Shown here one piece after another: positions 6,141 to 51,189 of a stretch of 64,000 nt of DNA. The DNA comes from Hyphomicrobiales bacterium (GTDB lineage: Bacteria; Pseudomonadota; Alphaproteobacteria; Rhizobiales; CBDCVD01), in NCBI GenBank assembly GCA_965222955.1, contig OZ244974.1, positions 1,920,226 through 1,984,225 of the forward strand, given 5' to 3'. The notes beneath the pieces are model-generated. The model was not told the origin of the DNA. It was given only the letters and a program-made list of their open reading frames with translations, and searched no databases. The stretch's first letter is position 1, and each line of letters starts with the position of its first letter. The translations under genes and the position numbers were made by a program.

Positions 6141-6373
6141 TAGAGCCTTTCAGCAGGTTGTTCCTGAGGCAGGCAAACCGGAAGGGGGTACCTCTTGCGC
6201 CATTGCCCCCAGGATGGCCACCTGCACCCGACAGGTTTACCAGGGACAACCTGTACCTGTCAGGTGCGGATGGATGGCCGGGTATGGCCATCCTTGCGGC
6301 CCTTGCGGCCCTTGCCGCCAGGGTGGCCTTCAGACCTGTCCGTCCCGGGCATAACCTGCTGAAAGATCACAAC
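6141..6373. repeat. Family C MITE-like element, full form
   Basis: Outer arms are tagagcctttcagcaggttgttcctgaggcagg and cctgtccgtcccgggcataacctgctgaaagatcacaac. The inner palindrome is cacccgacaggtttaccagggacaacctgtacctgtcaggtg. Confidence 0.85.
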
Positions 6374-6470
6374 TCGCCATGATAACGTTCTCGTGGCCCT
6401 TTGAATGTGACCTGACACGCTCCAGAACGAGGCCAGCGGCAACGGGGACGCAAATGTCACATGTGTTTCG

Positions 6471-6974: not shown

Positions 6975-9467
6975 GTGGCGCAAGGGGGAGCGGTTGTGCC
7001 GGAGTCCATGGGAGAGAAATACAGGGAGGTCATGGCCCTTGCCGGTCATGTGAACGGCGCATCGGATGGTGTGCGTACACTTTGGCTTGGCTTTCTCGCC
7101 TTTATGACGTTTCTGGCTCTGGCGGTGTTTGGCACCACCCACGAGGATTTGTTTCTTGAGACGCCTCTGGCGCTGCCGCCGCCGGTATCCGTTGAGATCA
7201 ATCTATGGGGATTTTACTTCATTGCGCCGCTTATTCTGGTGGTGATTCACGGCTATCTGTTGTTAAAGCTGCTTTTTCTCAAATACGTTTATGATGACTT
7301 CGAGGCGCAGGTCAGGAAAGATATTGGCCTTCGTATTGACAGAGTGCAGGCGCGCAAGCACTTGAACATCACCCTTTTTACGCGCGTTCTCATGTCCCTT
7401 GGCGGTTTTATCAGTGACGCGCCCTTGAACGGGGCGGAATGGAGACGCCGTTATACTGTTCGGGTGGCGACGCTGTTTTTGGCGGTGACGGTGATCGTAC
7501 TCCCATTGAGCGCGCTGCTGTTTATCTGGATAAGGTTTCTGCCCTATCAGTATGAGGCGGCGACCCTGTGGCACCGGGTTTTGTTCGCCATCGACATGAT
7601 CGCCATTGTCTGGGCGGTATGGATGATTGCCGGTTTTCGCCTTCTGGCGCGGATGTGTCTTGTCCTGTTTGTTTTATTGATTCTAGCTGCATTATCGATA
7701 CGCCATGACGTAATCGGTCGTCTTGTTCAGTTTGCTCAGAAGGGAGGGGAAATGCCGGACTGGCAGCAATGGCTGATTGTAGTCATCCTCTTCGCTATTG
7801 TTCTCGCGGGTATCGTTTTTCGAAAGTTACTTGGAAATGTGATTCGTTATATTTTCAAGATTGTCGAACGCGTTTGGACTGATTTTGTAGCTCTTCTGTC
7901 CGATGGATTCCGGCACTTTGCGGAACAGTCTTTTTCGTATTTTGTCAAAACGATGGGGTTGTTTTTCATTTTCTGCGGTCCGGCGCTGGTTGTTTTGCCG
8001 GCGTGGTTCCTGTTTACCTTTCCACGGGAGTGCTTGCAGGATGATCGAAAATGGGATGATGGGCGCTATCAATGGACTGGCGGCGAGGCGTGGTGCTGGG
8101 ACAGGAATGCCGTCTCAACGGGACTTGTCGATACACTCAAATTGCGGCGTATCACAGACCGCAAGCGTAGCACAGATGGTAAGGAGGCTCCAAAAATGGA
8201 CTTTGGTACGGATGCCCTTCTTTGGCCACCGGTGACGCTGAACGTGGCATCGCAACAGATTGTTTATCATCGCTTTGTGCGTGAGCAGGGCGGTGACCTG
8301 ACGGCGTTAAAACGCACCCTGAATTTGGAGGGCCGTTCTTTTGTCGGCGCTGATCTGCAGGACGTGGACTTGCGAAAAGCCTATCTGGTTGGCGCTGACT
8401 TACGCGGCATCATCGGTAAAAACCTGAACCTGAAAGGCGCAGCATTGCAGGGGAGCCACCTGCAGGCGGCGAATATGCGGGAGGCCGAACTGCAGGGGGC
8501 GGATTTGCTGTTTGCTAACCTGCAGGAGGCGGAATTGTGGGAGGCCCAGCTGCAGGGGGCGAATTTGCGGTCGGCCCGCTTGCAGGGGGCGAAGTTGGGT
8601 TCTGCCCGCCTGCAGGGGGCGAATTTGCGGGGTGCTAACCTGCAGGGGGCGGATTTGCTGTTTGCTAACCTGCAGGGGGCGGATTTGGAGGGTGCCCAGC
8701 TGCAGGGGGCGGATTTGCTGTTTGCTAACCTGCAGGGGGCGAATTTGGAGTGGGCTGAGCTGCAGGGGGCGGATTTGGTGGGTGCCCACCTGCAGGGGGC
8801 GGATTTGCTGTTTGCTAACCTGCAGGGGGCGAATTTGGTGGGTGCCTACCTGCAGGGGGCGCTAATGTACAAAACGGCCCTGTGGCGGGCGGAACCGCCA
8901 GGGGACCTAAAGGGCGTAACAGGTGTTGCGCTGGACTTTACCCCCCTGAACAATGCCGCAAGCCAGATAAGTGCATGGCTGAAAAACGTGCCTGATGGAG
9001 ACGAAAAAGCAGCAAATGGAAACACAAAAAAAGCAGCAAAAGAACGCCTTGAAGTGCTGACGCGCAGTGCGAAACAACAGGACAAGGAAAACAAAAAGCG
9101 CTGGGAGGCTCAGACGGCCATCAACATCTCCGATTCAGAGGAGCGCAACAAGGCCATAGATGATCATTTAAAGGCGCAATATGACATATATAAAGCGCTC
9201 TTGTGTCCCCCAGGTGACCAGATCGGCGATGAACGCAAAAATTTCCTGGTCGAAACCGATGCCATCGCCACAGCCGTGACAGAGCGATGGTCACTAATTT
9301 TGCAGTTACGCAAAGCGTCGCTCAATGTCCAGGCAAGCGCCGTCGAAAAATTCTTGTACGAGCTGGCTTTTAAAACACTCCAAACCTATAGCAAGCTTTT
9401 GCAACATATCCGCGCCTGCCGGGCGGAAAAGCCCGCCACGGCCAACACCGCGGTAACCAACGAATAA
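6975..9467 (+). CDS. Polytopic membrane protein with a C-terminal pentapeptide-repeat domain
   Basis: 830 aa. There are about 7 hydrophobic helices in the first 390 aa. About 190 aa of A(D/N)LxG-type pentapeptide repeats follow (ADLQDVDLRKAYLVGADLRG ... ANLQGANLVGAYLQGA). The protein ends in a Lys/Glu-rich helical tail. The start is uncertain: GTG 6975 or ATG 7008. Confidence 0.75.
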   Translation: MAQGGAVVPESMGEKYREVMALAGHVNGASDGVRTLWLGFLAFMTFLALAVFGTTHEDLFLETPLALPPPVSVEINLWGFYFIAPLILVVIHGYLLLKLLFLKYVYDDFEAQVRKDIGLRIDRVQARKHLNITLFTRVLMSLGGFISDAPLNGAEWRRRYTVRVATLFLAVTVIVLPLSALLFIWIRFLPYQYEAATLWHRVLFAIDMIAIVWAVWMIAGFRLLARMCLVLFVLLILAALSIRHDVIGRLVQFAQKGGEMPDWQQWLIVVILFAIVLAGIVFRKLLGNVIRYIFKIVERVWTDFVALLSDGFRHFAEQSFSYFVKTMGLFFIFCGPALVVLPAWFLFTFPRECLQDDRKWDDGRYQWTGGEAWCWDRNAVSTGLVDTLKLRRITDRKRSTDGKEAPKMDFGTDALLWPPVTLNVASQQIVYHRFVREQGGDLTALKRTLNLEGRSFVGADLQDVDLRKAYLVGADLRGIIGKNLNLKGAALQGSHLQAANMREAELQGADLLFANLQEAELWEAQLQGANLRSARLQGAKLGSARLQGANLRGANLQGADLLFANLQGADLEGAQLQGADLLFANLQGANLEWAELQGADLVGAHLQGADLLFANLQGANLVGAYLQGALMYKTALWRAEPPGDLKGVTGVALDFTPLNNAASQISAWLKNVPDGDEKAANGNTKKAAKERLEVLTRSAKQQDKENKKRWEAQTAINISDSEERNKAIDDHLKAQYDIYKALLCPPGDQIGDERKNFLVETDAIATAVTERWSLILQLRKASLNVQASAVEKFLYELAFKTLQTYSKLLQHIRACRAEKPATANTAVTNE
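8455..8870 (+). repeat. Coding tandem repeat (30-bp unit) within the pentapeptide domain
   Basis: Reiterated ctgcagggggcggatttgctgtttgctaac (LQGADLLFAN) with minor variants. A CTGCAG occurs at each unit. Confidence 0.9.
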
Positions 9468-12204: not shown

Positions 12205-12424
12205 AGAAAATCTCCCTGATGAACGGTTGAAAGATCAAAATCGCCGTCAACTGCAATAATACCGGCGGTATAGGCTTTGTGGACGCGCCGGCTGGTGTCC
12301 TGCCGGTGTAACATCACGCGTTAATGCCGGGTTGTGAGCGACCGGCAAGCGCTTTTGGTGTAATCCTGAAGAAACAGCGCAAGGCGAAGGCGCGCCGTCC
12401 GGATAATGTGTCGTACAACCGGAA

Positions 12425-13916: not shown

Positions 13917-15395
13917 CTATGAGATGTCCAGTTTGCGGCGCAGCGCATCGTTGACCGCCTGGGGGTTCGCCTTGCCCTTGCTGGCCTTCATGACCTGACC
14001 AACAAACCAGCCGATCAGTCCGGGTTTGGTGGCAACGCGCGCCACTTGTTCCGGATTGGCGGCGATGACGTCATCAATGATGGCGTCGATGGCGCCGGTG
14101 TCGGTGATCTGTGTCAGGCCGCGAGCGGCGACGATGGCCGCCGGATCGCCCCCCTCGCGCCAGACGATCTCGAACACGTCCTTGGCGATCTTGCCGGATA
14201 TGTCGCCGCGCGCGATCAGATCCAGAATGGCGCCCATCTGATCGCTGGAGACCGGGCTTTCGGAAATCGTCAGCCCCTCGCGATTAAGCCGGCCGAACAG
14301 GGTGTTGATCACCCAGTTGGCCACCTGTTTCGGCTCGCGCCCGCCAACGACGCTCTCAAAGTAATCGGCCGCCTCGCGTTCGGCCGTCAGAATGCCGGCG
14401 TCATAGGCGCCAAGGCCGAATGCGTCCATAAAACGCTGCCGTTTGTCGTCGGGGAGTTCGGGAAGAGATGCCGCAAGAGAATCAACAAATGACGGATCGA
14501 GCGTTAATGGCAACAGATCGGGGCAGGGGAAATAGCGATAATCATGGGCCTCCTCCTTGGAGCGCATGGAACGGGTGATCCCTTTCGCCGCATCGAAAAG
14601 GCGCGTTTCCTGCTCGATCGTACCGCCATCTTCCAGAATATCGATCTGCCGCCGCGCCTCGTAATCGATGGCCTGGGCGGCAAAGCGCATGGAGTTGACA
14701 TTTTTTATCTCGCAACGCGTCCCCAGGTCTCCCCCCGGGCGGCGCACCGAAATATTGACATCGGCGCGCAAGTGGCCCTTTTCCATATCCGCCTCCGAGG
14801 TACCCAGGTACTTCAGGATTGAGCGCAGTTTGGCGATATAGGCACGCGCCTCGTCGGCGGATCGCAGGTCCGGTCTGGAGACGATTTCCATGAGCGCCAC
14901 GCCGGAGCGGTTCAGATCGACAAAACTCATTGTCGGGTGTTGATCGTGCATGGACTTGCCAGCGTCCTGTTCCAGGTGCAGGCGTTCGATGCCGATCGTG
15001 ATCGGCGCCCGGTCCTTCATATGGAGGGTGATTTCTCCCTCGCCGACAATGGGGTCCTTGTACTGGGAAATCTGATAGCCCTGCGGCAGATCGGGATAGA
15101 AGTAGTTCTTGCGATCAAAGACGGAGCGCAGATTGATTTTGGCGCGAAGGCCCAGACCAGTGCGCACCGCCTGGGCGACGCAGGCCTTGTTGATGACCGG
15201 CAACATGCCCGGCATGGCCGCATCGACAAGGGAGACGTGATCGTTCGGCTCACCGCCAAAGGCCGTCGGGGCGCCGGAAAAGAGCTTGGCGCGGGAAGCC
15301 ACCTGGGCGTGTACCTCAAGACCAATGACCACTTCCCAGTCGCCGCTGGCGCTGCGAATCCAATCTTTCCTGCTGGCGATACGTTCCGCACCCAT
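13917..15395 (-). CDS. gatB: Asp/Glu-tRNA amidotransferase subunit B
   Basis: [28 protein letters not shown] and a C-terminal YqeY-like tail. I prefer ATG 15395 (AGGA 7 nt upstream) over the track start at 15431. Confidence 0.93.
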
Positions 15396-15490
15396 GAGCC
15401 CATCCTGACTTAAACAAAGGGACGTCTGCATCGCCGTTGATAGCCAAGCACAGTACGAACTGCAATCAAAAAGATCGCTGGCGGCCGTGG

Positions 15491-15550
15491 GTGTGATCTT
15501 TCAGCAGATTGTGCCCGGGACGGGCGATCCTGAAGCGACCCGTTGCGCCT
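15491..15550 (+). repeat. Family C, outer-left arm only
   Basis: gtgtgatctttcagcagattgtgcccgggacgggcgatcctgaagcgacc. Confidence 0.75.
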
Positions 15551-15611: not shown

Positions 15612-16203
15612 TTATACCAGCGGTATTGGCGTTTGTACGCGCTGACTTGTGTGTCGTGCTGATAAGACAACGGTTGTAAACCGGGTCAGGAGTCAAACGC
15701 AAGTCCCTTGTATGCCAGCGGTATTGGCGTTTGTACACGCTGACTTGTGTGTCGTGCTGATAAGACAACGGTTGTAAACCGGGTCAGGAGTCAAACGCAA
15801 GTCCCTTGTATGCCAGCGGCATTGGCGTTTGTACGCGCTAACTTGTGTGTCGTGCTGATAAGACAACGGTTGTAAACCGGGTCAGGAGTCAAACGCAAGT
15901 CCCTTGTATGCCAGCGGTATTGGCGTTTGTACGCGCTAACTTGTGTGTCGTGCTGATAAGACAACGGTTGTAAACCGGGTCAGGAGTCAAACGCAAGTCC
16001 CTTGTATGCCAGCGGTATTGGGGTTTGTACGCGCTGACTCGTGTGTCGTGCTGATAAGACAACGGTTGTAAACTGCGCCGGGAGTCAAACGTAAGTCCCT
16101 GTATACCAGCGGTATTGGGGTCGGTACGCGCTGACTTGTGTGTCGTGCTGATAAGACAACGGTTGTAAACCGGGCCAGGAGTCAAACCAAAGCCCCCTGG
16201 TAT
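15612..16203 (+). repeat. Tandem array of 6 head-to-tail R98 units (period 97-99 bp)
   Basis: Unit starts (tat[ag]ccagcgg) are at 15612, 15710, 15809, 15907, 16005 and 16102. The units abut with no unique spacers. Confidence 0.95.
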
Positions 16204-16268
16204 TACAGATCGGTGTCCGTGTTTTCGCGACCCTGGTTCCTACTCTTGTTTGCGGCCTTTCTCTGAGC

Positions 16269-17393
16269 CTAATTCTGAGCCGCTTTAGCCTTGTTCCGGG
16301 CCTTGTTCCGGGCCTTGTTCCTGGCTTTGCTCCGGGCCTTGTTCTGAGACGCTTTAGCCTTATTTCGGGCCTTGTTCCTGGCTTTGCTCCGGGCCTTGTT
16401 CTGAGACGCTTTAGCCTTATTTCGGGCCTTGTTCCTGGCTTTGCTCCGGGCCTTGTTCTGAGCTGCTTTTGCCTTCCTCCGGGCACTTTTGGCCTTACTC
16501 TGCGCGGCGCGCCTTGTCTTTTTTTCTGCTGTCCTGGTCTGGCGTGTGGCCTGCTTCCTTGCCTGTTTGGCGGCCCTTGCGGTACGCCTTGCTTCGCGTT
16601 GCGCCCTGGCAGCGGTACGTTTCGCCGCCTTTGTGGCCAGTTTTTCCGCCCGCGCAGCGGCCCGGTCGGCCTTACGCGCTGCACGTTTTGCGACCCTCTC
16701 GGCCTTCAGCGCCTCCCGCCTGGCCTTGCGTGCGGCCTGTCTGGCGCGTTTGGCAACGGCGCGCTGATTGCGAACGGAAGCATTTCGCCGCGTCTTGCGC
16801 TTTTTGACGCGCCGCTTTTTGCCGCCGGATTTTACGCGCAATCCGCGAAATACGCCTGATTTTGTTGTCGCCCGCTCGCCCTTGCGCAAGACGGTCGTTT
16901 CGCCACTGGCGTTGTCGTCGACTTCAACCGCGCCGCGGTTAACGTCAACCCGCGAGTTTTTCGCATTGACGCTAACCAGGAAACGGGTTCCCTTGACGGC
17001 CGCCACCAGATGGGGCGTATGCACGGAAAAATGCTGCGCCTTTCGCTTCTTTACCTCGTATTCAACCTTGCCGCGCGCCTGAATAATGATCGTATTCGCC
17101 ATCGAGCGGTTTTCGGGTGAAATCGTGATATGCGATCCCGGCGCCAGCATGATAAGTTCCTTGCCGCGCTTGATTACCGCGCGGGCGCGCTCACCGGTTG
17201 CCACTTTATCGCCGGCACGCAGTTTCATACCGGTGCGCGACTTGTACCACGTCTTGCCTTTCGCCGGAAAAACGTGCACATCTCCGGTGGTACGGCCCAG
17301 TATCCAGTCGGCGGCCGGCGCCATCGATACCGGTGCAAGCGCGCAGAACGCAACAAGGAAAAGACGAGATATGAGGGGAACTTTACAGCGCAT
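16269..17393 (-). CDS. Secreted FecR-domain protein with a roughly 190-aa Lys/Arg/Ala-rich repeat tail
   Basis: 374 aa. Signal peptide LFLVAFCALAPVSMAPAADW. FecR-like core RTGMKLRAGDKVATGERARAVI...VHTPHLVAAVKGTRFLV. A polycationic tail follows, ending in reiterated KAKASQNKARSKARNKARN. Confidence 0.75.
   Translation of the reverse strand: MRCKVPLISRLFLVAFCALAPVSMAPAADWILGRTTGDVHVFPAKGKTWYKSRTGMKLRAGDKVATGERARAVIKRGKELIMLAPGSHITISPENRSMANTIIIQARGKVEYEVKKRKAQHFSVHTPHLVAAVKGTRFLVSVNAKNSRVDVNRGAVEVDDNASGETTVLRKGERATTKSGVFRGLRVKSGGKKRRVKKRKTRRNASVRNQRAVAKRARQAARKARREALKAERVAKRAARKADRAAARAEKLATKAAKRTAARAQREARRTARAAKQARKQATRQTRTAEKKTRRAAQSKAKSARRKAKAAQNKARSKARNKARNKAKASQNKARSKARNKARNKAKASQNKARSKARNKARNKARNKAKAAQN
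16273..16470 (-). repeat. Coding tandem repeat (57-bp, 19-aa unit) in the FecR-protein tail
   Basis: ttctgag unit starts are at 16273, 16342, 16399 and 16456. Confidence 0.85.
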
Positions 17394-17919
17394 GGATCAC
17401 CAACAGTTTTTTCTTTTGTGCAGGCTTCGAATGGCCTGATAGTTTATTGTTTGGCGGACCCTCGATCCGATCGGGCGCGATAGTTTCGATTTTCTCCGAC
17501 AACCTCTTGCACAATCGCGATCGGGTATCCCTGGTACCGGCGGCATTTGCTCACAAATTCGCTGCGTGGCGTATTGCCTTGATAAAACCCTTTGTAACGC
17601 CACACTGTTTGTCATGGCTATGCGGCTTTGGTCTGAGCCGTGAAATTTGAGGAAAACGCCAATACGAATTAAATCATAGGTTTATTTTCTTCAAATTTCG
17701 CCTTATGCTAGTATCAGTCCGTTAACAGAAACTTACCCCAATAGTATAACCTCGATTGTTACGGCGTTTCGGGGGCGCGATTATGGGAAATTGACGAAGA
17801 ATGCATTAATTTGAACCAATACCGAGATAAATATGTTATATATTTCAATGTTTTAAAATTGTTGGAGATTGCCCGTCGACATCTTAACCATGACCACATA
17901 TAGTTCCGTCACGCGCGCG

Positions 17920-18036
17920 TTGTGACCTTTCAGCCCGTTGTATCCAGGACAGGCAAATCTGAAGCGATACCTATTGTGGCCGTGGCGAGCAGCACCCGAC
18001 GGGTTTCATCGAGAACAACCTGTTGCAATTGCACAC
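17920..18036 (+). repeat. Family C (outer-left arm plus inner-right arm)
   Basis: gtgacctttcagcccgttgtatccaggacaggcaaatctgaag ... cacccgacgggtttcatcgagaacaacctgttgcaattgcacac. Confidence 0.8.
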
Positions 18037-18116
18037 CCGGGCGCGGGGGTATCGGGCGCTGGGGTATATTGTCGAGACGCCCAGCGGGTTTATGTACTAT
18101 GCCAAAAGCGCTTATA

Positions 18117-18415
18117 ATACCAGGGGGCTTTGCGTGTGACTCCTGGCTCAGATTAAAACCGTTGTTTTATCAGCACGATACACAAGTCAGCGTGTACAAA
18201 ACGCCAATACCGCTGGTACACAGGGACTTACGTGTGACTCCTGGCTCAGATTAAAACCGTTGTCTTATCAGCACGATACACAAGTCGGCGTGTACAAAAC
18301 GTCAATACCGCTGGTATACAGGGACTTACGTGTGACTCCTGGCTTGGTTGAAAACCGTTGCCTTATCAGCACGACACACAAGTCAGCGCGTACAAAACGC
18401 CAATACCGCTGGTAT
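18117..18415 (-). repeat. Tandem array of 3 R98 units, inverted relative to 15612-16203
   Basis: Three consecutive reverse-complement units, each ending ...gtacaaaacg[ct]caataccgctggta. Confidence 0.95.
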
Positions 18416-18458
18416 CAGTCCGCCGGGTTGCCCCAGGGACTGATTTGTCCTTGGTGTT

Positions 18459-18510
18459 CACTGGGAAAAAGCAGACCGAGGCGAAGCCGAGGGACTTTTT
18501 CACATTCAAC
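18459..18510. repeat. Family B hairpin (with the longer left extension from about 18420)
   Basis: cactgggaaaaagcagaccgaggcgaagccgagggactttttcacattcaac. The upstream ccgccgggttgccccagggactgatttgtcc is shared with the copies at 58941 and 33996-34038. Confidence 0.85.
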
Positions 18511-18585
18511 GCAATACATCGTATTGCCCGGTGCCTGATGCGGATACCGCTGATACAACGGCCTGCGAACGGTTATGAGGTCACC

Positions 18586-18792
18586 ATGCAACAAGCCGAC
18601 AAGGATGCGTTGGTTCAGCAACTCAATACGTTGCGTGCGTTGCACCAGAAGTTGAGCGAGGAGATTGTGTTGTTGTCACGCGCAGCAAACGCCGATCGCT
18701 TTGAGGTTCTGCGCTTGAAACGGGAAAAGGTGCAGCTCAAGGACAGGATTTCCGTTCTTGAAGACAAGATTACGCCGGATATCATCGCCTGA
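18586..18792 (+). CDS. Small coiled-coil protein, DUF465 (YdcH)-like
   Basis: 68 aa from ATG 18586, with GAGG 5 nt upstream. MQQADKDALVQQLNTLRALHQKLSEEI...LRLKREKVQLKDRISVLEDKITPDIIA. The 5' part of the track ORF (18358..) lies in repeat sequence. Confidence 0.55.
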   Translation: MQQADKDALVQQLNTLRALHQKLSEEIVLLSRAANADRFEVLRLKREKVQLKDRISVLEDKITPDIIA

Positions 18793-18795
18793 TTT

Positions 18796-18848
18796 GGTGA
18801 ATGTGAACATTTCCTCGGCTTCGCTTGGGTGTACTTTTCACATTCAAC
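18796..18848. repeat. Family B hairpin
   Basis: ggtgaatgtgaacatttcctcggcttcgcttgggtgtacttttcacattcaac. Confidence 0.8.
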
Positions 18849-18879
18849 CAATGCATTTCACAGCATTATCAGAGCGCTA

Positions 18880-19161
18880 TCAGACTTTTGTAAAGCAAAA
18901 TACAAACCAGCAAACGGCGATCGCCAAAGGCACCCAAAGGGGCATGCCGAACAAACCCAGCCAGGCCAGAAAAATATACGCCGATCCCAAAAGACTCAAA
19001 AACAGGCGATCGCCGCGCGTCGTCACCAGACCGAACACCCCATGGCGCTCGCTCGTGCCCGGATAGCGGATTTCGATTATCGTGATAATCGCCATCGCGG
19101 TGAAAATAAAGATAAAGAACAGACCCGTCGGCCATGTCCAGGCCATCCAGCCAAGCATCAC
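18880..19161 (-). CDS. DUF2160 small integral membrane protein (ABC-operon associated)
   Basis: 93 aa with three hydrophobic segments. It overlaps the permease stop by 4 nt. This family accompanies glycerol-type CUT1 ABC operons in Rhizobiales. Confidence 0.65.
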   Translation of the reverse strand: MMLGWMAWTWPTGLFFIFIFTAMAIITIIEIRYPGTSERHGVFGLVTTRGDRLFLSLLGSAYIFLAWLGLFGMPLWVPLAIAVCWFVFCFTKV

Positions 19162-19955
19162 ACCCTGCCCATCGCGAAACCCTTCGCGATATAATTGCGA
19201 ACAAAATAGATAACGATGGCGCCAGGAATAATCGTCAGCGTTCCCGCCGCCGCGAGAAGACCCAGTTCATACCCCGCACTGGACGCCGTCTTTGTCATCG
19301 TCGCCGCGATTGGCTTGGCGGCAACTGCGGTGAGAGTTTTTGCCAGTAACAGTTCCACCCACGAAAACATAAAGCAAAAGAACGCCGTCACCCCGACGCC
19401 GGAGCCTATGGCGGGAATGAAGATCCTCACAAAGAATCTCGAAAACGAATATCCGTCCACATAAGCCGTTTCATCCAGCTCCCTCGGTACACCGCTCATA
19501 AAACCCTCCAGTATCCACACCGCCAGGGGGATGTTGAAAAGACAATGTGCCAGGGCAACAGCAAGATGGGTGTCAAATAGTCCAACCGCCGAGTAGAGCT
19601 GGAAAAAGGGCAATGCAAACACAGCCGCCGGCGCCATCCGATTGGTCAGCAGCCAAAAGAACAGCGTTTTGTCTCCCAAAAACCGGTAGCGGGAAAAAGC
19701 ATAGGCAGCGGGCAGCGCCACGACAACCGAGACCACGGTGTTGAGCGAGACATAAATCAGCGAATTTATATACCCCCAGTACCAGGTGGGATCGGTGAAA
19801 ATCGTCCGATAGGCATCCAGCGTAAACGTCTGCGGGAACAGGGAAAACCCGGCCAGAATCTCGTTCGTGGTCCGAAAACTCATGGTCACAAGCCAGTATA
19901 TAGGCAGCAGCAGAAACAGGATATAGAGGATCGGCAGGATGGATCGCTTGCGCAT
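19158..19955 (-). CDS. CUT1 sugar/polyol ABC transporter permease
   Basis: MRKRSILPILYILFLLLPIYWLV. It carries an EAA-like loop. Its ATG overlaps the upstream stop (TAATG). Confidence 0.85.
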   Translation of the reverse strand: MRKRSILPILYILFLLLPIYWLVTMSFRTTNEILAGFSLFPQTFTLDAYRTIFTDPTWYWGYINSLIYVSLNTVVSVVVALPAAYAFSRYRFLGDKTLFFWLLTNRMAPAAVFALPFFQLYSAVGLFDTHLAVALAHCLFNIPLAVWILEGFMSGVPRELDETAYVDGYSFSRFFVRIFIPAIGSGVGVTAFFCFMFSWVELLLAKTLTAVAAKPIAATMTKTASSAGYELGLLAAAGTLTIIPGAIVIYFVRNYIAKGFAMGRV

Positions 19956-20833
19956 TATTTCTCCCCCGCCTGGCCGGTGTCTTCCCTGGTCATGATCGTA
20001 TAAAACAGCCACGATGCCAAAAGCGTGATGGCGAAATAGATCAGACTCATCGCCGCCGCGGGCCCAAGATCGAACTGGCCGAGCGCGATCTTAACCAGAT
20101 CAATTGAAAGCAGTGTCGTTGCATTTCCCGGCCCGCCGCCCGTCAACACAAACGGCTCGGTATAAATATTGAAAGAATCCATAAAGCGTAAAAGCACCGC
20201 GATCGTCAGCACGTTCCGGATTTTCGGCAGTTGGATAAAACGAAATACCGACCAGTTGGAGGCGCCATCGATCTTCGCCGCCTGGTAATAGGCATCCGGG
20301 ATAGACACCAGGCCCGCATACGCCAAAAGCACCACGAGCGATGTCCAATGCCATACATCCATTGCGACGATGGTCACCCAGGCGGCAACTGGGTTCTGCG
20401 TCATGTCGTAGGGAATGCCCAGCACGTGATTGAAGAAATAGCCGAGCAGGCCGATGTCCGGCAGGGTGAAAATATTCCACATCGCCCCCACCACGTTCCA
20501 GGGAATGAGCATCGGCAAAGACATCAGAACCAGACAGACGGAAACCCAGATACCCTTACGCGGCATCGACAAGGCAATCGCGACGCCTAAGGGAATTTCA
20601 ATCGCAAGAATCATAAACGTAAAGAGAAACTGCCGGCCAAGGGCATTATGAAACCGGTCGGAACGCAGGATATTCTCAAACCATGTGAGCCCTTCCCAGA
20701 AAAAAACATTGTCGCCAAATGTCTCCTGGACCGAGTAATTGACCACCGTCATCATGGGGATGAGGGCATTGAACGCCACCAGCACTAACACCGGCAAGAC
20801 GAGAAACCACGCCCGTTGATTTTCAGTCTTCAT
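19955..20833 (-). CDS. CUT1 sugar/polyol ABC transporter permease
   Basis: MKTENQRAWFLVLPVLVLVAFNALIPMM...YYQAAKIDGASNWSVFRFIQLP. It has an ATGA overlap with the ATPase gene. Confidence 0.85.
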   Translation of the reverse strand: MKTENQRAWFLVLPVLVLVAFNALIPMMTVVNYSVQETFGDNVFFWEGLTWFENILRSDRFHNALGRQFLFTFMILAIEIPLGVAIALSMPRKGIWVSVCLVLMSLPMLIPWNVVGAMWNIFTLPDIGLLGYFFNHVLGIPYDMTQNPVAAWVTIVAMDVWHWTSLVVLLAYAGLVSIPDAYYQAAKIDGASNWSVFRFIQLPKIRNVLTIAVLLRFMDSFNIYTEPFVLTGGGPGNATTLLSIDLVKIALGQFDLGPAAAMSLIYFAITLLASWLFYTIMTREDTGQAGEK

Positions 20834-21948
20834 GTTGCCGCTCTTTGCGATTCGCTCTGGTGTGCCTGCGTGGCGAGCCACCCATCCACATAGAGGCGTG
20901 TCTGACTGCGATCGAATTGAAGCCTGATCAGCGCACCCTGCTCGGGCGTATCGCCTTCAACAATGGCGGATACCCCATAATCACCGATCATGGCTTCGAT
21001 AACATTGTGGCGTCCCACATCGGATACTTTGCCGACCCGCGCTGTAAACCCCGCGTTGTCATCGGTGTCGCTTGTCGCCAGCGACACGAATTCAGGCCGT
21101 ATGCCGATCTCCGCGACGCCGGTTCTGCCATCGGCAATGGGGCCCTCCAGAGGCACATGCTGTCCGTTGAGAAAGGCGCCGCCCTGGCGCAATTCGCACG
21201 GCAGTACGTTCATGCCGGGAGAGCCGATGAAGTGGCCCACAAATGTGTGCGCGGGCCGCGCAAAAAGCTCAACGGGGGTGCCGATCTGAACGACCTGGCC
21301 AAGGTCCATGACAACCACCTGATCGGCAAAGGTGAGCGCCTCCGTCTGATCGTGGGTCACATAGATCATCGTATGGCGAACACGCTGATGCAACTCCTTC
21401 AGCTTTGAGCGCAGCTTCCATTTCAGGTGAGGGTCAATCACGGTGAGGGGTTCATCGAACAGGATGGCGTTGACATCATCGCGCACCAGGCCCCGCCCCA
21501 TCGACAGTTTTTGCTTGTTGTCGGGGCTTAGCCCCGCCGCGCGCCGCTTGAGCATGTCGGTCACTTCAAGCATTTCGGCAATTTCCATCACCCGCTTGTC
21601 GATCACGGCGGCGCTGGCGCCCCTGTTTCGCAGCGGAAACGCCAGATTGTCGTAGATGGTCATCGTGTCGTAGATCACCGGGAACTGGAACACTTGCGCA
21701 ATGTTACGCTTGTCCGGCGAAAGGGGTGTTACGTCCCGATCATCGAAGAACACCCTGCCTTCGGTGGGGGTACGCAAGCCCGAAATCAGGTTCAAAAGCG
21801 TGGTCTTGCCGCATCCCGAGGGGCCGAGCAACGCGTAGGCGCCGCCGTCATCCCAGACGAGATTGATGTGCTGCAAGGCGTAGTCCTGCGCCCGTTGCGG
21901 GTTCGACAGATAGCTGTGTCGCATCTTTGAGAGTGTGATTTTCGCCAT
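20830..21948 (-). CDS. ABC transporter ATP-binding protein (second ATPase)
   Basis: Walker A GPSGCGKTT, signature-like LSPDNKQKLSMGR, Walker B ILFDEP. Confidence 0.85.
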   Translation of the reverse strand: MAKITLSKMRHSYLSNPQRAQDYALQHINLVWDDGGAYALLGPSGCGKTTLLNLISGLRTPTEGRVFFDDRDVTPLSPDKRNIAQVFQFPVIYDTMTIYDNLAFPLRNRGASAAVIDKRVMEIAEMLEVTDMLKRRAAGLSPDNKQKLSMGRGLVRDDVNAILFDEPLTVIDPHLKWKLRSKLKELHQRVRHTMIYVTHDQTEALTFADQVVVMDLGQVVQIGTPVELFARPAHTFVGHFIGSPGMNVLPCELRQGGAFLNGQHVPLEGPIADGRTGVAEIGIRPEFVSLATSDTDDNAGFTARVGKVSDVGRHNVIEAMIGDYGVSAIVEGDTPEQGALIRLQFDRSQTRLYVDGWLATQAHQSESQRAAT

Positions 21949-21956
21949 CGCGCGCC

Positions 21957-23018
21957 TCACGCCAGCCGGGAGCCGTCGGGCGCAAAATACAGGCATGCCG
22001 ATGGGTCCATGTAAAATGTATGCGCGGCGCCGCTGGAATAGGGGTGTACGCCGTGGGCAAGCGAAACCCAGTCGTTGCCCTCGAATTCGAAATGGGCGCT
22101 GCTTTCAGAACCGCTCAGTTCGGTAACACCCACGCGCCCGGCGAGAGGGATTGTCGCCTTGTCGCTTTTTATCGGCACAATGTGATGGGCGCGCACGGCG
22201 ACGTGATAGTCTCCATCGGCCAGCCCGCTAACGCTGGCCGGCAGCGGCCAGGTGACGCTTCCCATATGCATCGTCCCGCCCCGCTTTTGCACCCGCGCAT
22301 GGTTTATCGGTGGATCGGAAAAAATCATTGATGCGGCAAGGGAAACCGGGTTGCGATAGATGTCTGCCGTGACGCCAAACTGACGAATGTATCCATCCTG
22401 CATCAGGGCCGTCCGGCCACCGAGAAGAAGCGCCTCCTCAGGTTCCGAAGTGGCGTATACCACGACGGCACCACGGCCGGCGAAAAGTTCAGGCAGTTGT
22501 TCGCGCAGTTCCTCTCGCAATTTATAATCGAGATTGGCCAACGGCTCGTCCAGAAATACGGCATTGCTCTCCTTGGCAATAGCCCGCGCCAACGCTGTTC
22601 GCTGTTGCTGGCCGCCGGACAGTTCGTGGGGCCGGCGCTGCAACAGGGGGCGCAATTTTAAAATATCGGCGGTTTCCTGCACACGCCGTTCGATTTCGGT
22701 TTCCCCCATACCGGCAACGCGCAACGGCGATGCGATATTGTCATAGACCGTCATCTGCGGATAGTTCACAAAGAACTGGTGAACCAGGCTGATATTGCGC
22801 TTTTGGGTGGAAAGGCGGGTAACATCCCTGCCGTTCATGATGATCGAGCCGGAGGCAACCGCATCCAGACCGGCCATCAGTTTGATCAGCGATGTCTTGC
22901 CGGCACCGGTCTCGCCGAGAAGCACGTTGAAGTGTCCAGGCTCCAGCAGCAGCGCGGTTTTCTTGATGTGGGCCCGCCCACGAACAACTTTTGTGACGTC
23001 CCTTAGTTCAAGCGCCAT
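21957..23018 (-). CDS. ABC transporter ATP-binding protein (first ATPase)
   Basis: Walker A GETGAGKTS, signature LSGGQQQR, Walker B VFLDEP. Confidence 0.9.
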   Translation of the reverse strand: MALELRDVTKVVRGRAHIKKTALLLEPGHFNVLLGETGAGKTSLIKLMAGLDAVASGSIIMNGRDVTRLSTQKRNISLVHQFFVNYPQMTVYDNIASPLRVAGMGETEIERRVQETADILKLRPLLQRRPHELSGGQQQRTALARAIAKESNAVFLDEPLANLDYKLREELREQLPELFAGRGAVVVYATSEPEEALLLGGRTALMQDGYIRQFGVTADIYRNPVSLAASMIFSDPPINHARVQKRGGTMHMGSVTWPLPASVSGLADGDYHVAVRAHHIVPIKSDKATIPLAGRVGVTELSGSESSAHFEFEGNDWVSLAHGVHPYSSGAAHTFYMDPSACLYFAPDGSRLA

Positions 23019-23044
23019 TTTGCACCATGTTCGTTACGCCAGAT

Positions 23045-23674
23045 GTGATCTTTCAGCAGGGTGTTCCCGGGACAGGCAGGTCTGAAGGTACATCTCTTGC
23101 GCCCTTGCCACCTTTGCCGCCAGGGAGGCCGTACCGGGCCACTCATCCGCACCCGACAGGTTTACCAGGGACACCCTGTTGAAATTACACATCTAGAGCG
23201 TGTCAGGTCTTAATAGAAACAGAGTTTCTTCTATTAGAGCGTGTCAGGTCTTAATAGAAGCAATTTTCGTTTCTCGATTGGCGAGGCGAACCACGCCCAA
23301 GGCGATCGAAGAGCGATGGCGACCCATCTCTCGAGAGCGGCTTGGGGGTGGGCGTCCGCCAATCGGAAACCCGAAGGGACGGGCGCTTTTGCACCAATAC
23401 GAACCTTAAGTCTCTTGAAAATAGCCCCACTATATCCTGCGAGACTTAAGGTTCATCTTGGTGCAAAATCGCTCCGTCAGAATGGTTCTATTAAAACCTG
23501 ACACGCTCTAGCGCTATGGCATTTTCGCACAAGCCGGATAGCCAGGTGGGTAATTTCAACAGCTTGTTCTCGAAAAGGCCATGACCAGAGGGTTGACCCG
23601 AACCGGCCCTGCCGCAGCTACGGCGGCAAGAGAATCCCTTCAGATTTGCCCGTCCCGGGAACAACGCCGAAAGG
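23045..23674. repeat. Nested repeat: a family C element split by a family D element, inside the ABC operon
   Basis: The C left half is at 23045-23192. D is at 23195-23509, comprising a partial mini copy at 23195-23235 and then a full copy with the TIRs agagcgtgtcaggtcttaatagaa and ttctattaaaacctgacacgctct. The C right half is at 23548-23674. Confidence 0.85.
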
Positions 23675-23833
23675 CCGCGGCCAGGCACACTCCGGTATTG
23701 AAAGCCACTTGCAAGATACGTCTGGAGCGCCTGGGGCTTCGGCGACACGCCAATCGCCAGCCCCGCCGCACTGAATTGTCCCGGTTCAATGCGGCGGAAT
23801 ACAGGGGATTGATGGCAACGCCAGACCTTGGCC

Positions 23834-25567
23834 TTACTGGGCCCAGCGGGTTATCAGTTCGTCATAATTGACGGTCTTGCCCTGGGGCTTCTCGTTTGCA
23901 AGTTTTGCTTTCGCGCCGCCCTTGCCGAGCCACTCGGAAGGGTCTTTAGGTTCGTTCAGCCGGGGTCCGCAGCCGCCATAGACATTTTGCGCCTCGTCGG
24001 CACGTTGCATCCGCGCCATGGTGACGTCCATTTCCTCGGCGAGACGATCCATCGCCTGCTGCGGCGTAAACGCGCCGGAGTTCACATCCCCGATCTGCTG
24101 CCACCAGATTTGCGCCAGTTTCGGATAGTCGGGCACATTCACGCCCGTGGGCGACCAGGCGACACGATCGGGCGAGCGGTAGAATTCCACAAGACCGCCG
24201 AGTTTTGGGGCGCGCTCGCTGAAGCTCTCGTGGTTGACGGTGGAGTTGCGAATGAATGTAAGGCCCACATGGGATTTCTTGACATCAACGGTTTTGGATA
24301 CGACAAACTGGGCGTAGAGCCAGGCGGCCCTGGCCCGATCCTCCGGTGTGGATTTCAAAAACGTCCAGGATCCCACGTCCTGATAGCCGACTTTCTGGCC
24401 TTCTTCCCAATAGGGACCATGGGGAGATGGCGCCATGCGCCACAGGGGGTTCCCGGCATCATCGACGGTATTGTTGCCCTCGGATTTCGGCTTTACCATA
24501 TCCGCGGTAAAGGCGGTGTACCAGAAGATCTGCTGGGCGACATTGCCCTGACTTAGCGCTGGCAAGGACTGGTAGAAGTCAAAGCTCGCGGCGCCTGGGG
24601 GGGCATATTTGCGCAACCACTCGTCCCATTTGCGGATGGCGTAAACCGCCGCCGGGCCGTTTGCCGCGCCGCCGCGGGACACGGATGCCCCGGCCGGATT
24701 ACACGAACCCGCCTCCATACGGATGCCCCATTCGTCGATGGGCACCCCGTTCGGCTCCCCCTTTGAGCCGGCGCCCGCCATGGAAAGCCATGCATCCGTC
24801 ATGCGCCATCCCAGATCGGGGGCCCGTTTGCCGTAATCCATATGGCCGTAGATATCCACACCATCGATGTTTTTGACATCGTTGGAGAAAAACTCGGCGA
24901 TATCCTCATAGGCAGACCAGTTGACCGGTACTCCCAGATCGTAACCGTATTTGGCCTTGAACGCCGCCTTGTGTTTGGGATCATCGAACCAGTCCTTGCG
25001 AAACCAGTAAAGGTTGGCGAACTGCTGGTCCGGAAGCTGGTAGAGTTTTCCATCCGGTCCGGTGGTAAATTGCGTGCCCATGAAATCGTCAAGGTCGAGT
25101 CCCGGATTGGTTACGCTTTTCCACGGACCGGCAATAGCATCGCTCAGATTGTAGGTCAGTTGCAGACGCGAATGCGTCCCGATCAGATCCGAATCGTTGA
25201 CATAGGCATCATAGAGATTTCGTTTGGTTTGCATTTGCGTCTGCACCGCCTGGACAACTTCGCCTTCGCCCAGGATTTGGTGATTGACCTTGATGCCGGT
25301 GATTTCCTCAAAGGCCTTTGTCAGAACCTCGGATTCGTAGCTATGGGTCGGAATGCCTTCGGACAGGACATTGATTTCCATACCCTTGAAAGGCTCTGCC
25401 GCCTTGATGAACCATTGCAATTCGGCAAGCTGCTCCGCCTTGGTTAGCGTCGAGGGCTGAAACTCGTTATCGATCCACTTTTTTGCCGCAGCCTCATCCG
25501 CCTGCGCAGTGGTACCGCCGGCCATCAGCGCCATGCTCGTGATGGCGCAAAGAAGATGCTTTCGCAT
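23834..25567 (-). CDS. Extracellular solute-binding protein of the CUT1 ABC transporter (large, about 577 aa, glycerol/polyol type)
   Basis: Signal peptide MRKHLLCAITSMALMAGGTTAQA. Family-1 SBP pattern. It is the first gene of the co-oriented cluster. Confidence 0.8.
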   Translation of the reverse strand: MRKHLLCAITSMALMAGGTTAQADEAAAKKWIDNEFQPSTLTKAEQLAELQWFIKAAEPFKGMEINVLSEGIPTHSYESEVLTKAFEEITGIKVNHQILGEGEVVQAVQTQMQTKRNLYDAYVNDSDLIGTHSRLQLTYNLSDAIAGPWKSVTNPGLDLDDFMGTQFTTGPDGKLYQLPDQQFANLYWFRKDWFDDPKHKAAFKAKYGYDLGVPVNWSAYEDIAEFFSNDVKNIDGVDIYGHMDYGKRAPDLGWRMTDAWLSMAGAGSKGEPNGVPIDEWGIRMEAGSCNPAGASVSRGGAANGPAAVYAIRKWDEWLRKYAPPGAASFDFYQSLPALSQGNVAQQIFWYTAFTADMVKPKSEGNNTVDDAGNPLWRMAPSPHGPYWEEGQKVGYQDVGSWTFLKSTPEDRARAAWLYAQFVVSKTVDVKKSHVGLTFIRNSTVNHESFSERAPKLGGLVEFYRSPDRVAWSPTGVNVPDYPKLAQIWWQQIGDVNSGAFTPQQAMDRLAEEMDVTMARMQRADEAQNVYGGCGPRLNEPKDPSEWLGKGGAKAKLANEKPQGKTVNYDELITRWAQ

Positions 25568-25827: not shown

Positions 25828-26973
25828 TCAGCGCAGGGGCGGTACGCCAAAACCGTTGATACGATCCAGTCGTTCCAGATTAACGACGCTTGAGAGCATG
25901 AGCCGGTCATGACTCCATTCCGAGGGCCGCGAGAACGCCGTAACAACCACCACAATCAGGGAAATCAGCGAAACGGCGAGCAGGGTGTCAAGATAACGAT
26001 TGCCGCTGTTGCCCAATCGTCCATCATTTGCGCTCCGGTTCGATAGTGCCAGAACCCGCCGCCCCAACGCGCTTTTTTTAAAGCCCCGCGGAGAGCGCCC
26101 CGAACGCCCCGGATCAAGCCCAAAGAGTGGTACGCTCATGGCGCCCAGGCGCGTATTCCGGGGAGAAGCAGCGGCCCTTGTTGCCAGTTCCAACAGCAAC
26201 AGGGCGTAGCGCCTTGGGTGGAAATTTTTTCGCGCAAGAAACGCCGCATCGCAACTGTATTCGCGATAGCGGCGGATCCTGTCCGAGATGAACCAGAAAG
26301 CCGGATTGAGAACCAGCAGCGGAGAGAGCAGTGACAATAGAATTTCCCAATCCACATCCCGCTGCCGAATATGCTGTATTTCGTGTCCCAGCGCCATGCG
26401 CATCGCCTCGCGATCGGATAAAAATGTGTCCGGTAGAACGATGTGGTATCTGGTCAGCCCCCGGCTTGAAAACGCGATAGTAATACGATTCGAGACCAGA
26501 ATGTTCAGCCTGCCACACGAACGCAGCGGCCTTGCATTGGATACGATTTTTATCAATCGTGCGGCGCTTATAGCGACGTAGCCGGCGCGCAGCAGCCCTG
26601 CAAGCGCCAGCGCGGCAGCCAGAACCAGCGAAGAGGGTGATGAAAGACCTGTAAGGTTGTCCATCAGGCTGTTTTTCGCCGTGAGCAGCTCGGCAAGCTG
26701 TGTTGCCGAAATGGCGATGTTGCCCTTCAGGTATTGCGCCACGACGACATCGGTGACATTGACGCCGAAAGACAATTTTGCGGGCGCGATTATCGGCAGC
26801 ACGACAAGGGATACAAAGGCGGCGCACAGTGCAGCGATCGACAGGTTCAGCCGCAGTTTATAGGCGTATCGCAAGCGGGTATGTTTTAGGGCGTATTCAG
26901 CGGTCCACACCGCCAGAAACGAAGCGATCATGATAAAATTGAGCACCAGCAAGAGTTCCAGAACCCTGCCCAT
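25828..26973 (-). CDS. M56-family (BlaR1-like) membrane metalloprotease/signal transducer
   Basis: HEIQHIRQRD zinc motif between TM helices. It lies immediately downstream of a BlaI-type repressor gene. No penicillin-binding sensor domain is apparent. Confidence 0.8.
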   Translation of the reverse strand: MGRVLELLLVLNFIMIASFLAVWTAEYALKHTRLRYAYKLRLNLSIAALCAAFVSLVVLPIIAPAKLSFGVNVTDVVVAQYLKGNIAISATQLAELLTAKNSLMDNLTGLSSPSSLVLAAALALAGLLRAGYVAISAARLIKIVSNARPLRSCGRLNILVSNRITIAFSSRGLTRYHIVLPDTFLSDREAMRMALGHEIQHIRQRDVDWEILLSLLSPLLVLNPAFWFISDRIRRYREYSCDAAFLARKNFHPRRYALLLLELATRAAASPRNTRLGAMSVPLFGLDPGRSGRSPRGFKKSALGRRVLALSNRSANDGRLGNSGNRYLDTLLAVSLISLIVVVVTAFSRPSEWSHDRLMLSSVVNLERLDRINGFGVPPLR

Positions 26974-26975
26974 AC

Positions 26976-27365
26976 CTACCTCCCGATTTTTGTATCGATA
27001 ATGTCCCTTATTTCCCTGATCATCTCCTCGCTCAGTTCCTCGTCGTCGACGAGGCGGGCGACGAGAGCGGTTGGCGCGCCGTTAAAGAGCGTGTCCGAAA
27101 GGCTTTTGAGCGATTTGCCTTCATACGCCTGCCTGTCGAGGGTTGGCGCGTAGATGAGCGTGCCGTCGGGTTTTTCCGCGTTCAGATAGCCTTTTTCCTG
27201 CAGGACTTTCAGGACGGTTGCCACCGACGTATAAGCGCGTGTTTCCTTTTGATTGAGGATATCCAGAACTTCGCGTACCGTGCCGGAGCCGATGTCCCAG
27301 AGCACTTTCATGAATTCGAGCTCAACGGACGTCAATAACTCGCTTTTTCCCTTGGGCCTGGGCAT
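26976..27365 (-). CDS. BlaI/MecI/CopY-family transcriptional repressor
   Basis: 129 aa. LTSVELEFMKVLWDIGSGTVREVLDILNQKETRAYTSVATVLKVLQEKGYL is a winged-helix pattern. Confidence 0.85.
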   Translation of the reverse strand: MPRPKGKSELLTSVELEFMKVLWDIGSGTVREVLDILNQKETRAYTSVATVLKVLQEKGYLNAEKPDGTLIYAPTLDRQAYEGKSLKSLSDTLFNGAPTALVARLVDDEELSEEMIREIRDIIDTKIGR

Positions 27366-27605: not shown

Positions 27606-28027
27606 GCGTTGATCGTGAAGAAAGGTGCTTCGCTCCGCTCAGCGCACTTTTCTTCATTTAAAACAATGAGAAAGCAACGATTAGGAAGGCGCGGCGCTTT
27701 GTTTTCCCCTGGGCTTGTTGCAAGGTTTTGGCGCATTTGCGCGTAAAGCCCGGGTGTCGCCTTTCAGTAGGTTGTTCTCGAAATCTCCGTCGGGTGCTGC
27801 TGGCCATTCATCTGATCATTAGAGATGTCACGTCCGGTTTGCCTGTACCGGGAACAACCTGCTGGAAGATCACAACCAGGGGGCTTTGCGTTTGACTCCT
27901 GGCCCGGCTTACAACCGTTGTCTTATCAGCACGACACACAAGTCAGCGCGTACAAAACGCCAATACCGCTGGTATTGTTGGGAAAAAGTGGACCGAGGCG
28001 AAGCCGAGGGACTTTTTCACATTCAAC
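27606..28027. repeat. Pile-up of four abutting repeat families (E, C, R98, B)
   Basis: E is at 27606-27746, C at 27754-27876, R98 (minus orientation) at 27875-27975, and B at 27977-28027. Confidence 0.85.
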
Positions 28028-28049
28028 TAATACCTCCCGCCGAAGCGCT

Positions 28050-51187: not shown

Positions 51188-51189
51188 AT

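Follow-up and report, generated by a model that had tools for sequence, protein, structure and literature searches.

The miniature inverted-repeat transposable elements (MITEs) of bacteria, among them the Correia/NEMIS, ERIC, RUP and Nezha families, have been reviewed (PMC3184786). Here we describe R98, a repeat found in 64,000 nucleotides of chromosomal DNA from a Hyphomicrobiales bacterium (assembly GCA_965222955.1, contig OZ244974.1, positions 1,920,226 to 1,984,225 of the forward strand; this whole stretch is hereafter “the window”). R98 resembles those families in its length of about 100 bp, its lack of coding capacity, its terminal inverted repeats (TIRs) and its short target-site duplication, and further in its many intergenic copies, its narrow host range and its nesting among other repeat families. 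It is unrelated to any Rfam family, and no cognate insertion sequence (IS) was identified. R98 differs from the described families in that complete elements also occur as head-to-tail multimers, one of six units (array A) and one of three (array B), which lie in opposite orientations on either side of a single gene for a FecR-domain protein. To our knowledge, whole-element multimers are not the usual form of the Correia/NEMIS, ERIC, RUP or Nezha families. We find it likely that the two arrays are multimers of the R98 MITE and that their inverted placement around the FecR-domain gene is a by-product of two selfish insertions, not a purpose-built device.

A spacer-less tandem array is known from BrickBuilt, a MITE of Porphyromonas gingivalis that is always intergenic, varies in repeat number and has inverted-repeat ends; its repeat unit is an internal 23-nt “brick” lying between leader and tail subunits (PMC4596501). 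The R98 arrays are likewise intergenic, free of spacers and bounded by inverted-repeat ends, but the unit that is repeated is the entire 98-101-bp element, including both TIRs. In having complete elements joined head to tail, with units closer to one another within an array than dispersed copies are, R98 is also like the tandem dimers and satellite arrays that derive from transposons. Such satellites form by head-to-tail joining followed by expansion through unequal exchange (PMC5932611; reviewed in PMC6947457, with IS tandem dimers cited therein), and the known cases are mostly eukaryotic and much larger than R98 (PMC5932611, PMC6947457). A third system of relevance is TIME-COMP, in which two MITEs bound a composite that was caught transposing with matching 5-bp duplications, the core of TIME-COMP1 measuring 1945 bp (PMC4133298). 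The closest bacterial parallels are thus BrickBuilt (PMC4596501), the IS tandem dimers and TIME-COMP (PMC4133298), whereas the model for the growth of the arrays comes from eukaryotic satellites (PMC5932611, PMC6947457).

The complete R98 element is 101 bp long and non-coding. Alignment of complete copies shows that they start with TACCAGCGG and finish with CC(C/T)TGGTA; no full copy departs from the outermost TACCA. The 5' end (TACCAGCGGTATTGGCGTTT) and the reverse-complemented 3' end (TACCAAGGGGCTTTGCGTTT) agree at 15 of 20 positions; R98 therefore has imperfect TIRs of about 20 bp. The element is flanked by a duplicated TNA triplet. This 3-bp target-site duplication is perfect in 7 of the 11 complete elements and one base off in three more: it is TTA around the copies at 3266 and 38634 and around array A as a whole, TGA around three copies in loci fetched from outside the window (L001:1023, L002:382 and L003:17591), and TAA around the copy at 12259. 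All natural 3' ends read AAAG(C/T/G)CCC(C/T)TGGTA and then pass into the flank, and the last unit of each array is no exception.

An insertion footprint is visible in the nearest available relative, the Hyphomicrobiales metagenome-assembled genome (MAG) OZ245032.1, whose GatB is 80% identical to that of the window. There, an R98 copy (L001:1023-1123, within positions 2,928,001-2,936,000 of the MAG) with TGA/TGA flanks splits the C-terminal remnant of a transposase, which has a weak Pfam match to DDE_Tnp_1_6 (E 7e-4). Subtraction of the element and one TGA leaves a continuous frame, ...RRRAAIEPVMGHLKSGHRMDRNYLAHEQGDAINPILAAAGYNFRLILKWI, an inferred empty site rather than an observed one. A 34-nt core of R98 has nine matches in the window, where 100 shuffles give an expectation of 0.00, and the open reading frames (ORFs) that run across R98 units are artefacts of the repeat. 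The TIRs, the duplication of fixed length, the insertion footprint and the many dispersed copies together identify R98 as a MITE, and it is a previously undescribed family of this uncultured Hyphomicrobiales lineage. Duplications of 3-bp TNA are also made by some IS5-family subgroups and by the Tourist MITEs of the PIF/Harbinger superfamily, and the TTA, TGA and TAA duplications of R98 are of the same kind. We take this likeness as a lead and not as membership; no transposase partner was found for R98, and no IS was matched to the terminus TACCAGCGG with the tools used.

R98 occupies eight loci in the window. All of its copies there are intergenic, and they fill 8 of the 26 gaps that measure 100 bp or more, three of them consecutive; neighbouring occupied gaps are therefore to be expected. 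Outside the arrays only single copies occur, in both orientations relative to the neighbouring genes. Four full-length and three partial copies are found in 37 kb of MAG OZ245032.1. That MAG alone, in the genome collection searched, contains an exact R98 21-mer, and R98 had no match in two metagenome scans, one viral scan or the plasmid collection. Among five fetched loci, namely the gatB locus of the relative (L003), a second relative (L004) and three glycerol-transporter loci (L005-L007), R98 is present in the first only.

Two methods recover both arrays. Tandem Repeats Finder reports array A with a 98-bp period (15613-16187, 5.9 copies, 95% matches, score 1024) and array B at 18133-18415 (2.9 copies, 92%, score 489), the consensus of the latter being the reverse complement of that of array A. 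An nhmmer profile made from the copies finds six full plus-strand units at 15614-16199 and three minus-strand units at 18120-18415. An earlier note on this DNA had described six plus-strand and three opposite units around a single FecR gene, without spacers and with only single copies elsewhere in the window; the repeat finder and the profile search bear this description out. A clustered regularly interspaced short palindromic repeat (CRISPR) array, which that note had also rejected, is ruled out, since the units abut at a 98-bp period with nothing between them. Array A as a whole is flanked by perfect triplets, TTA at 15612-15614 and TTA at 16203-16205, and from its outer triplets each array looks like one insertion site.

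All seven internal junctions have the form AAGTCCCT(T)GT(A/G)|T(A/G)CCAGCGG and lack a target duplication: the 3' end of the upstream unit is slightly shortened and is joined straight to the 5' end of the next. The junction between A5 and A6 is the same as that between B1 and B2 over 29 bp. Further, a terminal variant, CCCCCTGGT, is common to A6, B3 and the single copy at 27875, and the terminal units A6 and B3 both carry CCCCCTGGTA-TTA. The same shortened junction is unlikely to have formed independently at two sites, and thus, as judged from these sequences, the arrays appear to descend from one ancestral multimer. The notion that a single array was split by an inversion is rejected, because both arrays finish in complete natural 3' termini followed by TTA.

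Sequence divergence within the arrays speaks to their subsequent history. Units A1-A4 are mutually 97-99% identical, as compared with 75-91% for dispersed copies, and they share a derived junction, marked by an inserted T and by a G in place of an A in the 5' end. Units A5 and A6 show 87-92% identity with the rest of array A; the B units are 85-91% identical among themselves and 81-88% identical to the A units. A one-base deletion (GCG-TTTG) is found in every A unit and in no B unit. The near-identity and derived junction of A1-A4, set against the 81-92% of A5, A6 and the B units, indicate that a single variant unit of array A was recently amplified on the spot. The textbook routes for tandem amplification are unequal recombination and replication slippage. 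A change in copy number, which the earlier note had suggested as a possibility, has evidently taken place.

From these data we infer a course of events in which R98 would insert at TNA triplets and duplicate them, a transposase from elsewhere acting on it in trans. Two or three units would at first have become linked, 3' end straight onto 5' end and free of any intervening duplication, to give the ancestral multimer. Two origins are possible for the first dimer: a microhomology-mediated duplication at the TAT common to the end and the flank, or a junction of abutted ends like that of IS dimers. Copies of the multimer may then have landed in two neighbouring intergenic regions in opposite orientation, most likely through short-range transposition via the outermost ends. 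Later, unequal recombination or replication slippage would have enlarged array A where it stood. That the FecR-domain gene is bracketed by inverted arrays would, in such a history, be a side product of two selfish insertions into neighbouring stretches of DNA that hold no gene. Likely side effects are an unstable copy number and, between the arrays, gene conversion on occasion and inversion on rare ones; the arrays may also change how the 3' end of the FecR-gene transcript is processed, or insulate gatB.

Several facts weigh against this account. On the element strand, array B is flanked by TGA (18415-18417) and TTA (18115-18117), a mismatch of one base. Two array loci in adjacent gaps would be expected by chance, with random placement, in about 2 of 26 cases (8%), which is mildly unusual; taken together with the shared junction, this adjacency makes a short-range hop the simplest account. 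The double-insertion model of dimer formation predicts a target duplication between units (PMC5932611). The R98 junctions have none and so do not fit the simple form of that model. Another possibility is that the shared junction reflects not movement of the multimer but gene conversion between the arrays, which could also produce it. No autonomous element with ends that match those of R98 was found in the window or the fetched loci, and the sequence surveyed for multimers amounts to 64 kb from the source genome and 37 kb from its relative.

The segment between the arrays (approximately 16206-18114, about 1.9 kb) contains one gene, a low-GC stretch upstream of it and one copy of another dispersed repeat, family C, just as the earlier note had it. 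The product of the gene has a signal-peptide-like N-terminus, a FecR domain at residues 62-157 and a low-complexity tail rich in lysine, arginine and alanine. The protein is one of a large family: an exhaustive search gave 4855 homologues at E<=1e-3, the best of them 43% identical. The eight top matches that were inspected are laid out alike, the N-terminus being hydrophobic, the FecR domain following it and the low-complexity tail varying in composition; a word-indexed protein search with the N-terminus gave no match. The tail ends in a 19-residue unit rich in lysine, arginine, alanine and asparagine, encoded by a 57-bp tandem repeat. This coding repeat is a second recent tandem expansion at the FecR locus. 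Array A is placed between the stop codon of this gene and the start codon of gatB, both of which lie on the same strand. The guanine-plus-cytosine (GC) content across the gene is 0.55-0.67, not below that of the flanking genes.

The non-coding region upstream of the FecR-domain gene is of lower GC content (0.40-0.46 at 17400-17999, as compared with approximately 0.55 around it) and presumably holds the promoter of the gene. Its small ORFs have no Pfam match, and the region has no Rfam match at E<=1. Across the locus, sigma-70-like sites are as numerous as chance would have them. The best of these, TCGACA-17-TATAGT (10 of 12 positions, 17876-17904, plus strand), points rightward via the family C copy and array B toward the divergent DUF465 gene. 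In the nearest genomes (L003, L004 and L005-L007), no synteny with the FecR-gene neighbourhood was found around gatB or the glycerol transporter operon. Nothing indicates a functional link between the FecR-domain gene and the arrays.

The inverted disposition of the arrays raises the question of whether they and the gene form a MITE-bounded composite transposon, that is, a 2.8-kb element (15615-18414) that the R98 transposase would move, in the manner of IS-bounded composites and TIME-COMP, and whose cargo would be the FecR-domain gene. The 5' ends of the outer units both point outward and match over 17 identical bases, a one-base indel and 35 identical bases; the outer ends of the inverted arrays are thus better inverted repeats than are those of one unit. 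MITE pairs can mobilise the DNA between them, and TIME-COMP1 and TIME-COMP2 were captured experimentally (PMC4133298). As in TIME-COMP, the R98 multimers lie inverted around about 1.9 kb that is devoid of transposition function. Further, because the nearest available genomes do not preserve synteny around gatB and the glycerol transporter operon, the position of the FecR-domain gene is not demonstrably ancestral. Nevertheless, we consider a composite unlikely. Unlike in TIME-COMP, the outermost triplets, TTA (15612-15614) and TCA (18415-18417), agree at only two of three positions, a fit that is equally imperfect for an independent insertion of array B, either model being left with one mismatch; array A carries its own perfect TTA/TTA duplication; and no second copy of the gene or segment occurs within the window or is otherwise known. 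The arms differ by 12-19%, so that any joint movement must be old. The cargo would include a copy of a repeat family native to the chromosome, and the GC content of the gene is not anomalous. Also unsupported is the earlier note's proposal of a composite or switchable cassette in place of random MITE scatter, given that the unit is itself a MITE with TIRs and a 3-bp duplication that occupies 8 of 26 gaps and that array A is a duplication-flanked insertion in its own right. It is a long shot, in our estimation, that whole-MITE multimers are mobile through their outermost TIRs and that the inverted pair constitutes a 2.8-kb composite able to move or flip a chromosomal gene. If true, such a composite of mobile multimers would be the counterpart, in bacteria, of the passage from transposon to satellite, with gene capture linked to it.

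Co-option of the arrays for regulation is similarly doubtful. Repetitive extragenic palindromes (REPs) and bacterial interspersed mosaic elements (BIMEs) are clustered imperfect palindromes between genes that can form arrays and affect the 3' ends of mRNAs; REPs are 20-40 bp long, have no target duplication and are tied to RAYT (IS200/IS605-type) transposases. The R98 arrays, like REP/BIME clusters and REPINs, are clustered, imperfectly palindromic and intergenic, and by analogy they might owe their retention to a function as a terminator or insulator, as a stabiliser of mRNA 3' ends or as a platform for nucleoid proteins, in the way of the REP/BIME clusters of enterobacteria. In favour of this, array A lies exactly between the FecR-gene stop and the gatB start, with no terminator-like site in the preceding 65 nt. 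Each unit can form a hairpin of approximately -25 to -30 kcal/mol, and terminator-like motifs number 21 where 5.4 are expected. The excess, however, is mostly one motif per R98 unit, the enrichment arising because each unit adds the same weak motif, with a stem of 5-8 bp and a weak T tract. R98 also differs from REPs in its 3-bp duplications, and Pfam revealed no transposase or RAYT candidate among the scanned ORFs of the window.

Analysis of RNA folding casts further doubt on regulation. Fold stability is no better than that of shuffled sequences, whether for the unit (z -0.7 and -1.2) or for the array edges, read as the FecR gene and gatB are transcribed (z -0.06 and -1.7). In a comparison of 11 diverse copies, compensatory change is absent from all 21 predicted pairs, Rfam gives no match at the gathering score or at E<=1, and single copies elsewhere lie in either orientation to the neighbouring genes. 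The “structured” element of the earlier note is thus not structured beyond the hairpin implied by its TIRs. An RNA gene or riboswitch is ruled out, there being no Rfam match, no covariation and no unusual stability. A role for R98 as a terminator, insulator or mRNA stabiliser is, on this analogy, speculation. Long double-stranded RNA was another suggestion of that note; a single transcript over both arrays is unlikely, since array B stands between two divergent genes, on the upstream side of the AT-rich stretch that presumably holds the FecR promoter. Cruciform formation across a 1.9-kb spacer is mechanistically implausible on established knowledge.

Very improbable, in our view, is an inversion switch, in which homologous recombination between the arrays would flip the 1.9-kb segment and alter expression of the FecR-domain gene or its neighbours. 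Known switches (fimS, hin, the shufflons and the promoter inversions of Bacteroides) work with short, specific repeats of about 9-30 bp and a site-specific recombinase encoded alongside; what they flip is a promoter or a choice of gene ends. The R98 locus resembles them as a segment between inverted repeats, which here extend over about 300 bp, lie 1.9 kb apart and share exact tracts of 35, 32, 29 and 27 bp. Further, unit A5 has a B-type junction within an otherwise A-type array, which could mark an exchange between arrays. Against this, the B-type patch is only some 20-29 nt long and is more simply explained as the ancestral junction type. The arrays, called near-identical in the earlier note, are only 81-88% identical, and their longest exact tract is near the minimum for efficient RecA-dependent exchange, making them a poor substrate for the homologous inversion that the note envisaged. 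The locus differs from known switches in that its repeats are transposon arrays of 300-600 bp; in addition, Pfam scans of 48 ORFs of the window turned up neither a recombinase or invertase nor a transposase. The segment holds a complete ORF together with 525 bp upstream of it; gene and presumed promoter would move together, and inversion would not uncouple them. The single assembly presents one orientation. Finally, that the assembler made or miscounted the tandem copies is scarcely credible, for although the source appears to be a single metagenome-derived contig with no second assembly for comparison, the arrays (0.3 and 0.6 kb) are well inside single long reads, their units have individual substitutions and two distinct junction types, and both finish in complete natural termini with target-site triplets.

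We return to multimers of a selfish MITE, set in their wider genomic context. The window is ordinary chromosomal DNA with gatB, purE/purK, efp, ctaA and a glycerol-type ATP-binding cassette (ABC) transporter with DUF2160. Several families of dispersed repeats, mostly intergenic, make up about 9% of it (5.8 kb). Array B abuts a copy of another repeat family at its outer end, and the R98 copies at 27875 and 59949 are nested among these families; given this and the overall repeat content, the background of R98 is a dense MITE mosaic. Two of the other families recur beside R98. Family C, whose core is TGTGATCTTTCAGCAGGTTGTTCCCGGGACGGGCAAATCTGAAG, is about 130 bp long, dispersed and intergenic; its copies lie in both orientations, often beside R98 or the third family. 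That third, hairpin family (about 55-100 bp, GAAAAAGTCCCTCGGCTTCGCC..GGTC..TTTTTCACATTCAAC) repeatedly abuts R98; its copy at the outer end of array B matches 34040-33946, 58941-59029, 59895-59950, 27979-28033, 3489-3442 and 50970-50923. The coordinates of these and other features are given in Table 1.

Table 1. R98 arrays and copies, the enclosed gene and its neighbours, and copies of two further repeat families (window coordinates)
Feature	Position	Strand	Remarks
Array A	15615-16202	+	six head-to-tail R98 units, starts 15615, 15713, 15811, 15909, 16007, 16104
Array B	18118-18414	-	three head-to-tail R98 units, minus-strand starts 18414, 18316, 18218
R98 single copy	3266-3366	+	perfect TTA/TTA
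R98 degenerate copy	12259-12354	+	TAA/TAA flanks; nhmmer E 1.1e-4
R98 single copy	27875-27974	-	3' end short by 1-2 bases at family C junction; 5' end beside hairpin-family copy
R98 single copy	32178-32278	+	CAA/TAA flanks
R98 single copy	38634-38734	+	perfect TTA/TTA
R98 fragment	59949-60019	-	5' 71 nt; abuts hairpin-family copy
FecR-domain gene	16269-17393	-	374 aa; Pfam PF04773, E 7.7e-13
57-bp in-frame tandem repeat	16300-16475	-	3.1 copies, 95% matches; end of polycationic tail (Tandem Repeats Finder and ORF translation)
Low-GC non-coding region	17394-17918		upstream of FecR-domain gene
gatB	13917-15395	-	492-aa product; Pfam GatB_N and GatB_Yqey; left neighbour
DUF465 gene, small	18586-18792	+	Pfam PF04325, E 4.4e-8; right neighbour, divergent from FecR-domain gene
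Family C copy	17919-18042	+	unrelated to R98; matches 27876-27748 (75%), 34297-34253, 33745-33796; families D7/D8/D10
Family C partial copy	15489-15547	+	between gatB start and array A
Family C, other copies	6147-6377, 23041-23228, 27748-27876, 30507-30584, 33671-33796, 34231-34297		
Family C, other copies	39066-39110, 51080-51191, 55773-55835, 62543-62602		
Hairpin-family copy	18414-18517	+	GAAAAAG..CGAGGCGAAGCCGAGG..; abuts outer end of array B
Hairpin family, other copies	3438-3495, 18794-18851, 27973-28033, 33938-34040, 50907-50976, 58941-59043, 59895-59950		

Other repeats of the window also have R98 for a neighbour. An inverted repeat pair of about 140-160 bp (3122-3260 and 23234-23392) has 82-nt arms, 3143-3224 and 23291-23372, that are 89% complementary, and its copy at 3122-3260 directly adjoins the R98 copy at 3266. 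A sequence homologous to both members lies beside the transposase remnant of the relative (L001:770-926), and this repeat could belong to a larger mobile element. Direct repeats of 139 bp (27608-27746 and 58754-58892, 83-88% identical) lie in different intergenic regions, each beside R98 and hairpin-family copies. The mosaic of R98, family C and hairpin copies at 27.4-28.0 kb is next to genes for a BlaR1-like M56 peptidase and a BlaI/Penicillinase_R repressor, which stand side by side (25828-27365, minus strand).

Several further features of the window were noted. An array at 8458-8893 with periods of 30, 60 and 90 bp (13 copies, 77-80% matches) lies inside the plus-strand ORF 6975-9467; this encodes an 830-residue pentapeptide-repeat protein (Pfam Pentapeptide, E 3.7e-47), and the array is thus a coding repeat. 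A direct repeat at 53367-54107 and 54939-55679 (spacing 1572 bp, 72% over 261 nt plus shorter matches) covers an ANF_receptor/LppC-like ORF (52797-54164, plus strand) and a called ORF on the minus strand (54390-55835). This arrangement suggests that the latter interval is a plus-strand tandem paralogue and that its minus-strand ORF is spurious. In the glycerol-type ABC transporter operon with DUF2160 (18880-25567, minus strand), the permease encoded at 19158-19955 is 89-92% identical to those of many Rhodobacteraceae (Sulfitobacter, Roseovarius and others), whereas GatB of this genome reaches no more than 80% identity with any other protein in the database. The operon is either very strongly conserved or horizontally acquired.

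Nothing at the locus points to a new biological mechanism. What the R98 family does provide, with its 3-bp TNA target and its TACCAGCGG termini, is an explanation for many spurious small ORFs and repeats in these genomes. If the copy number of the arrays varies between cells, read-through from the FecR-domain gene into gatB could be modulated. The occurrence of complete MITEs as head-to-tail multimers, with one junction at two loci, suggests that they can spread as units and then grow locally. The route from transposon to minisatellite that this would represent is well documented in eukaryotes and rarely in bacteria.

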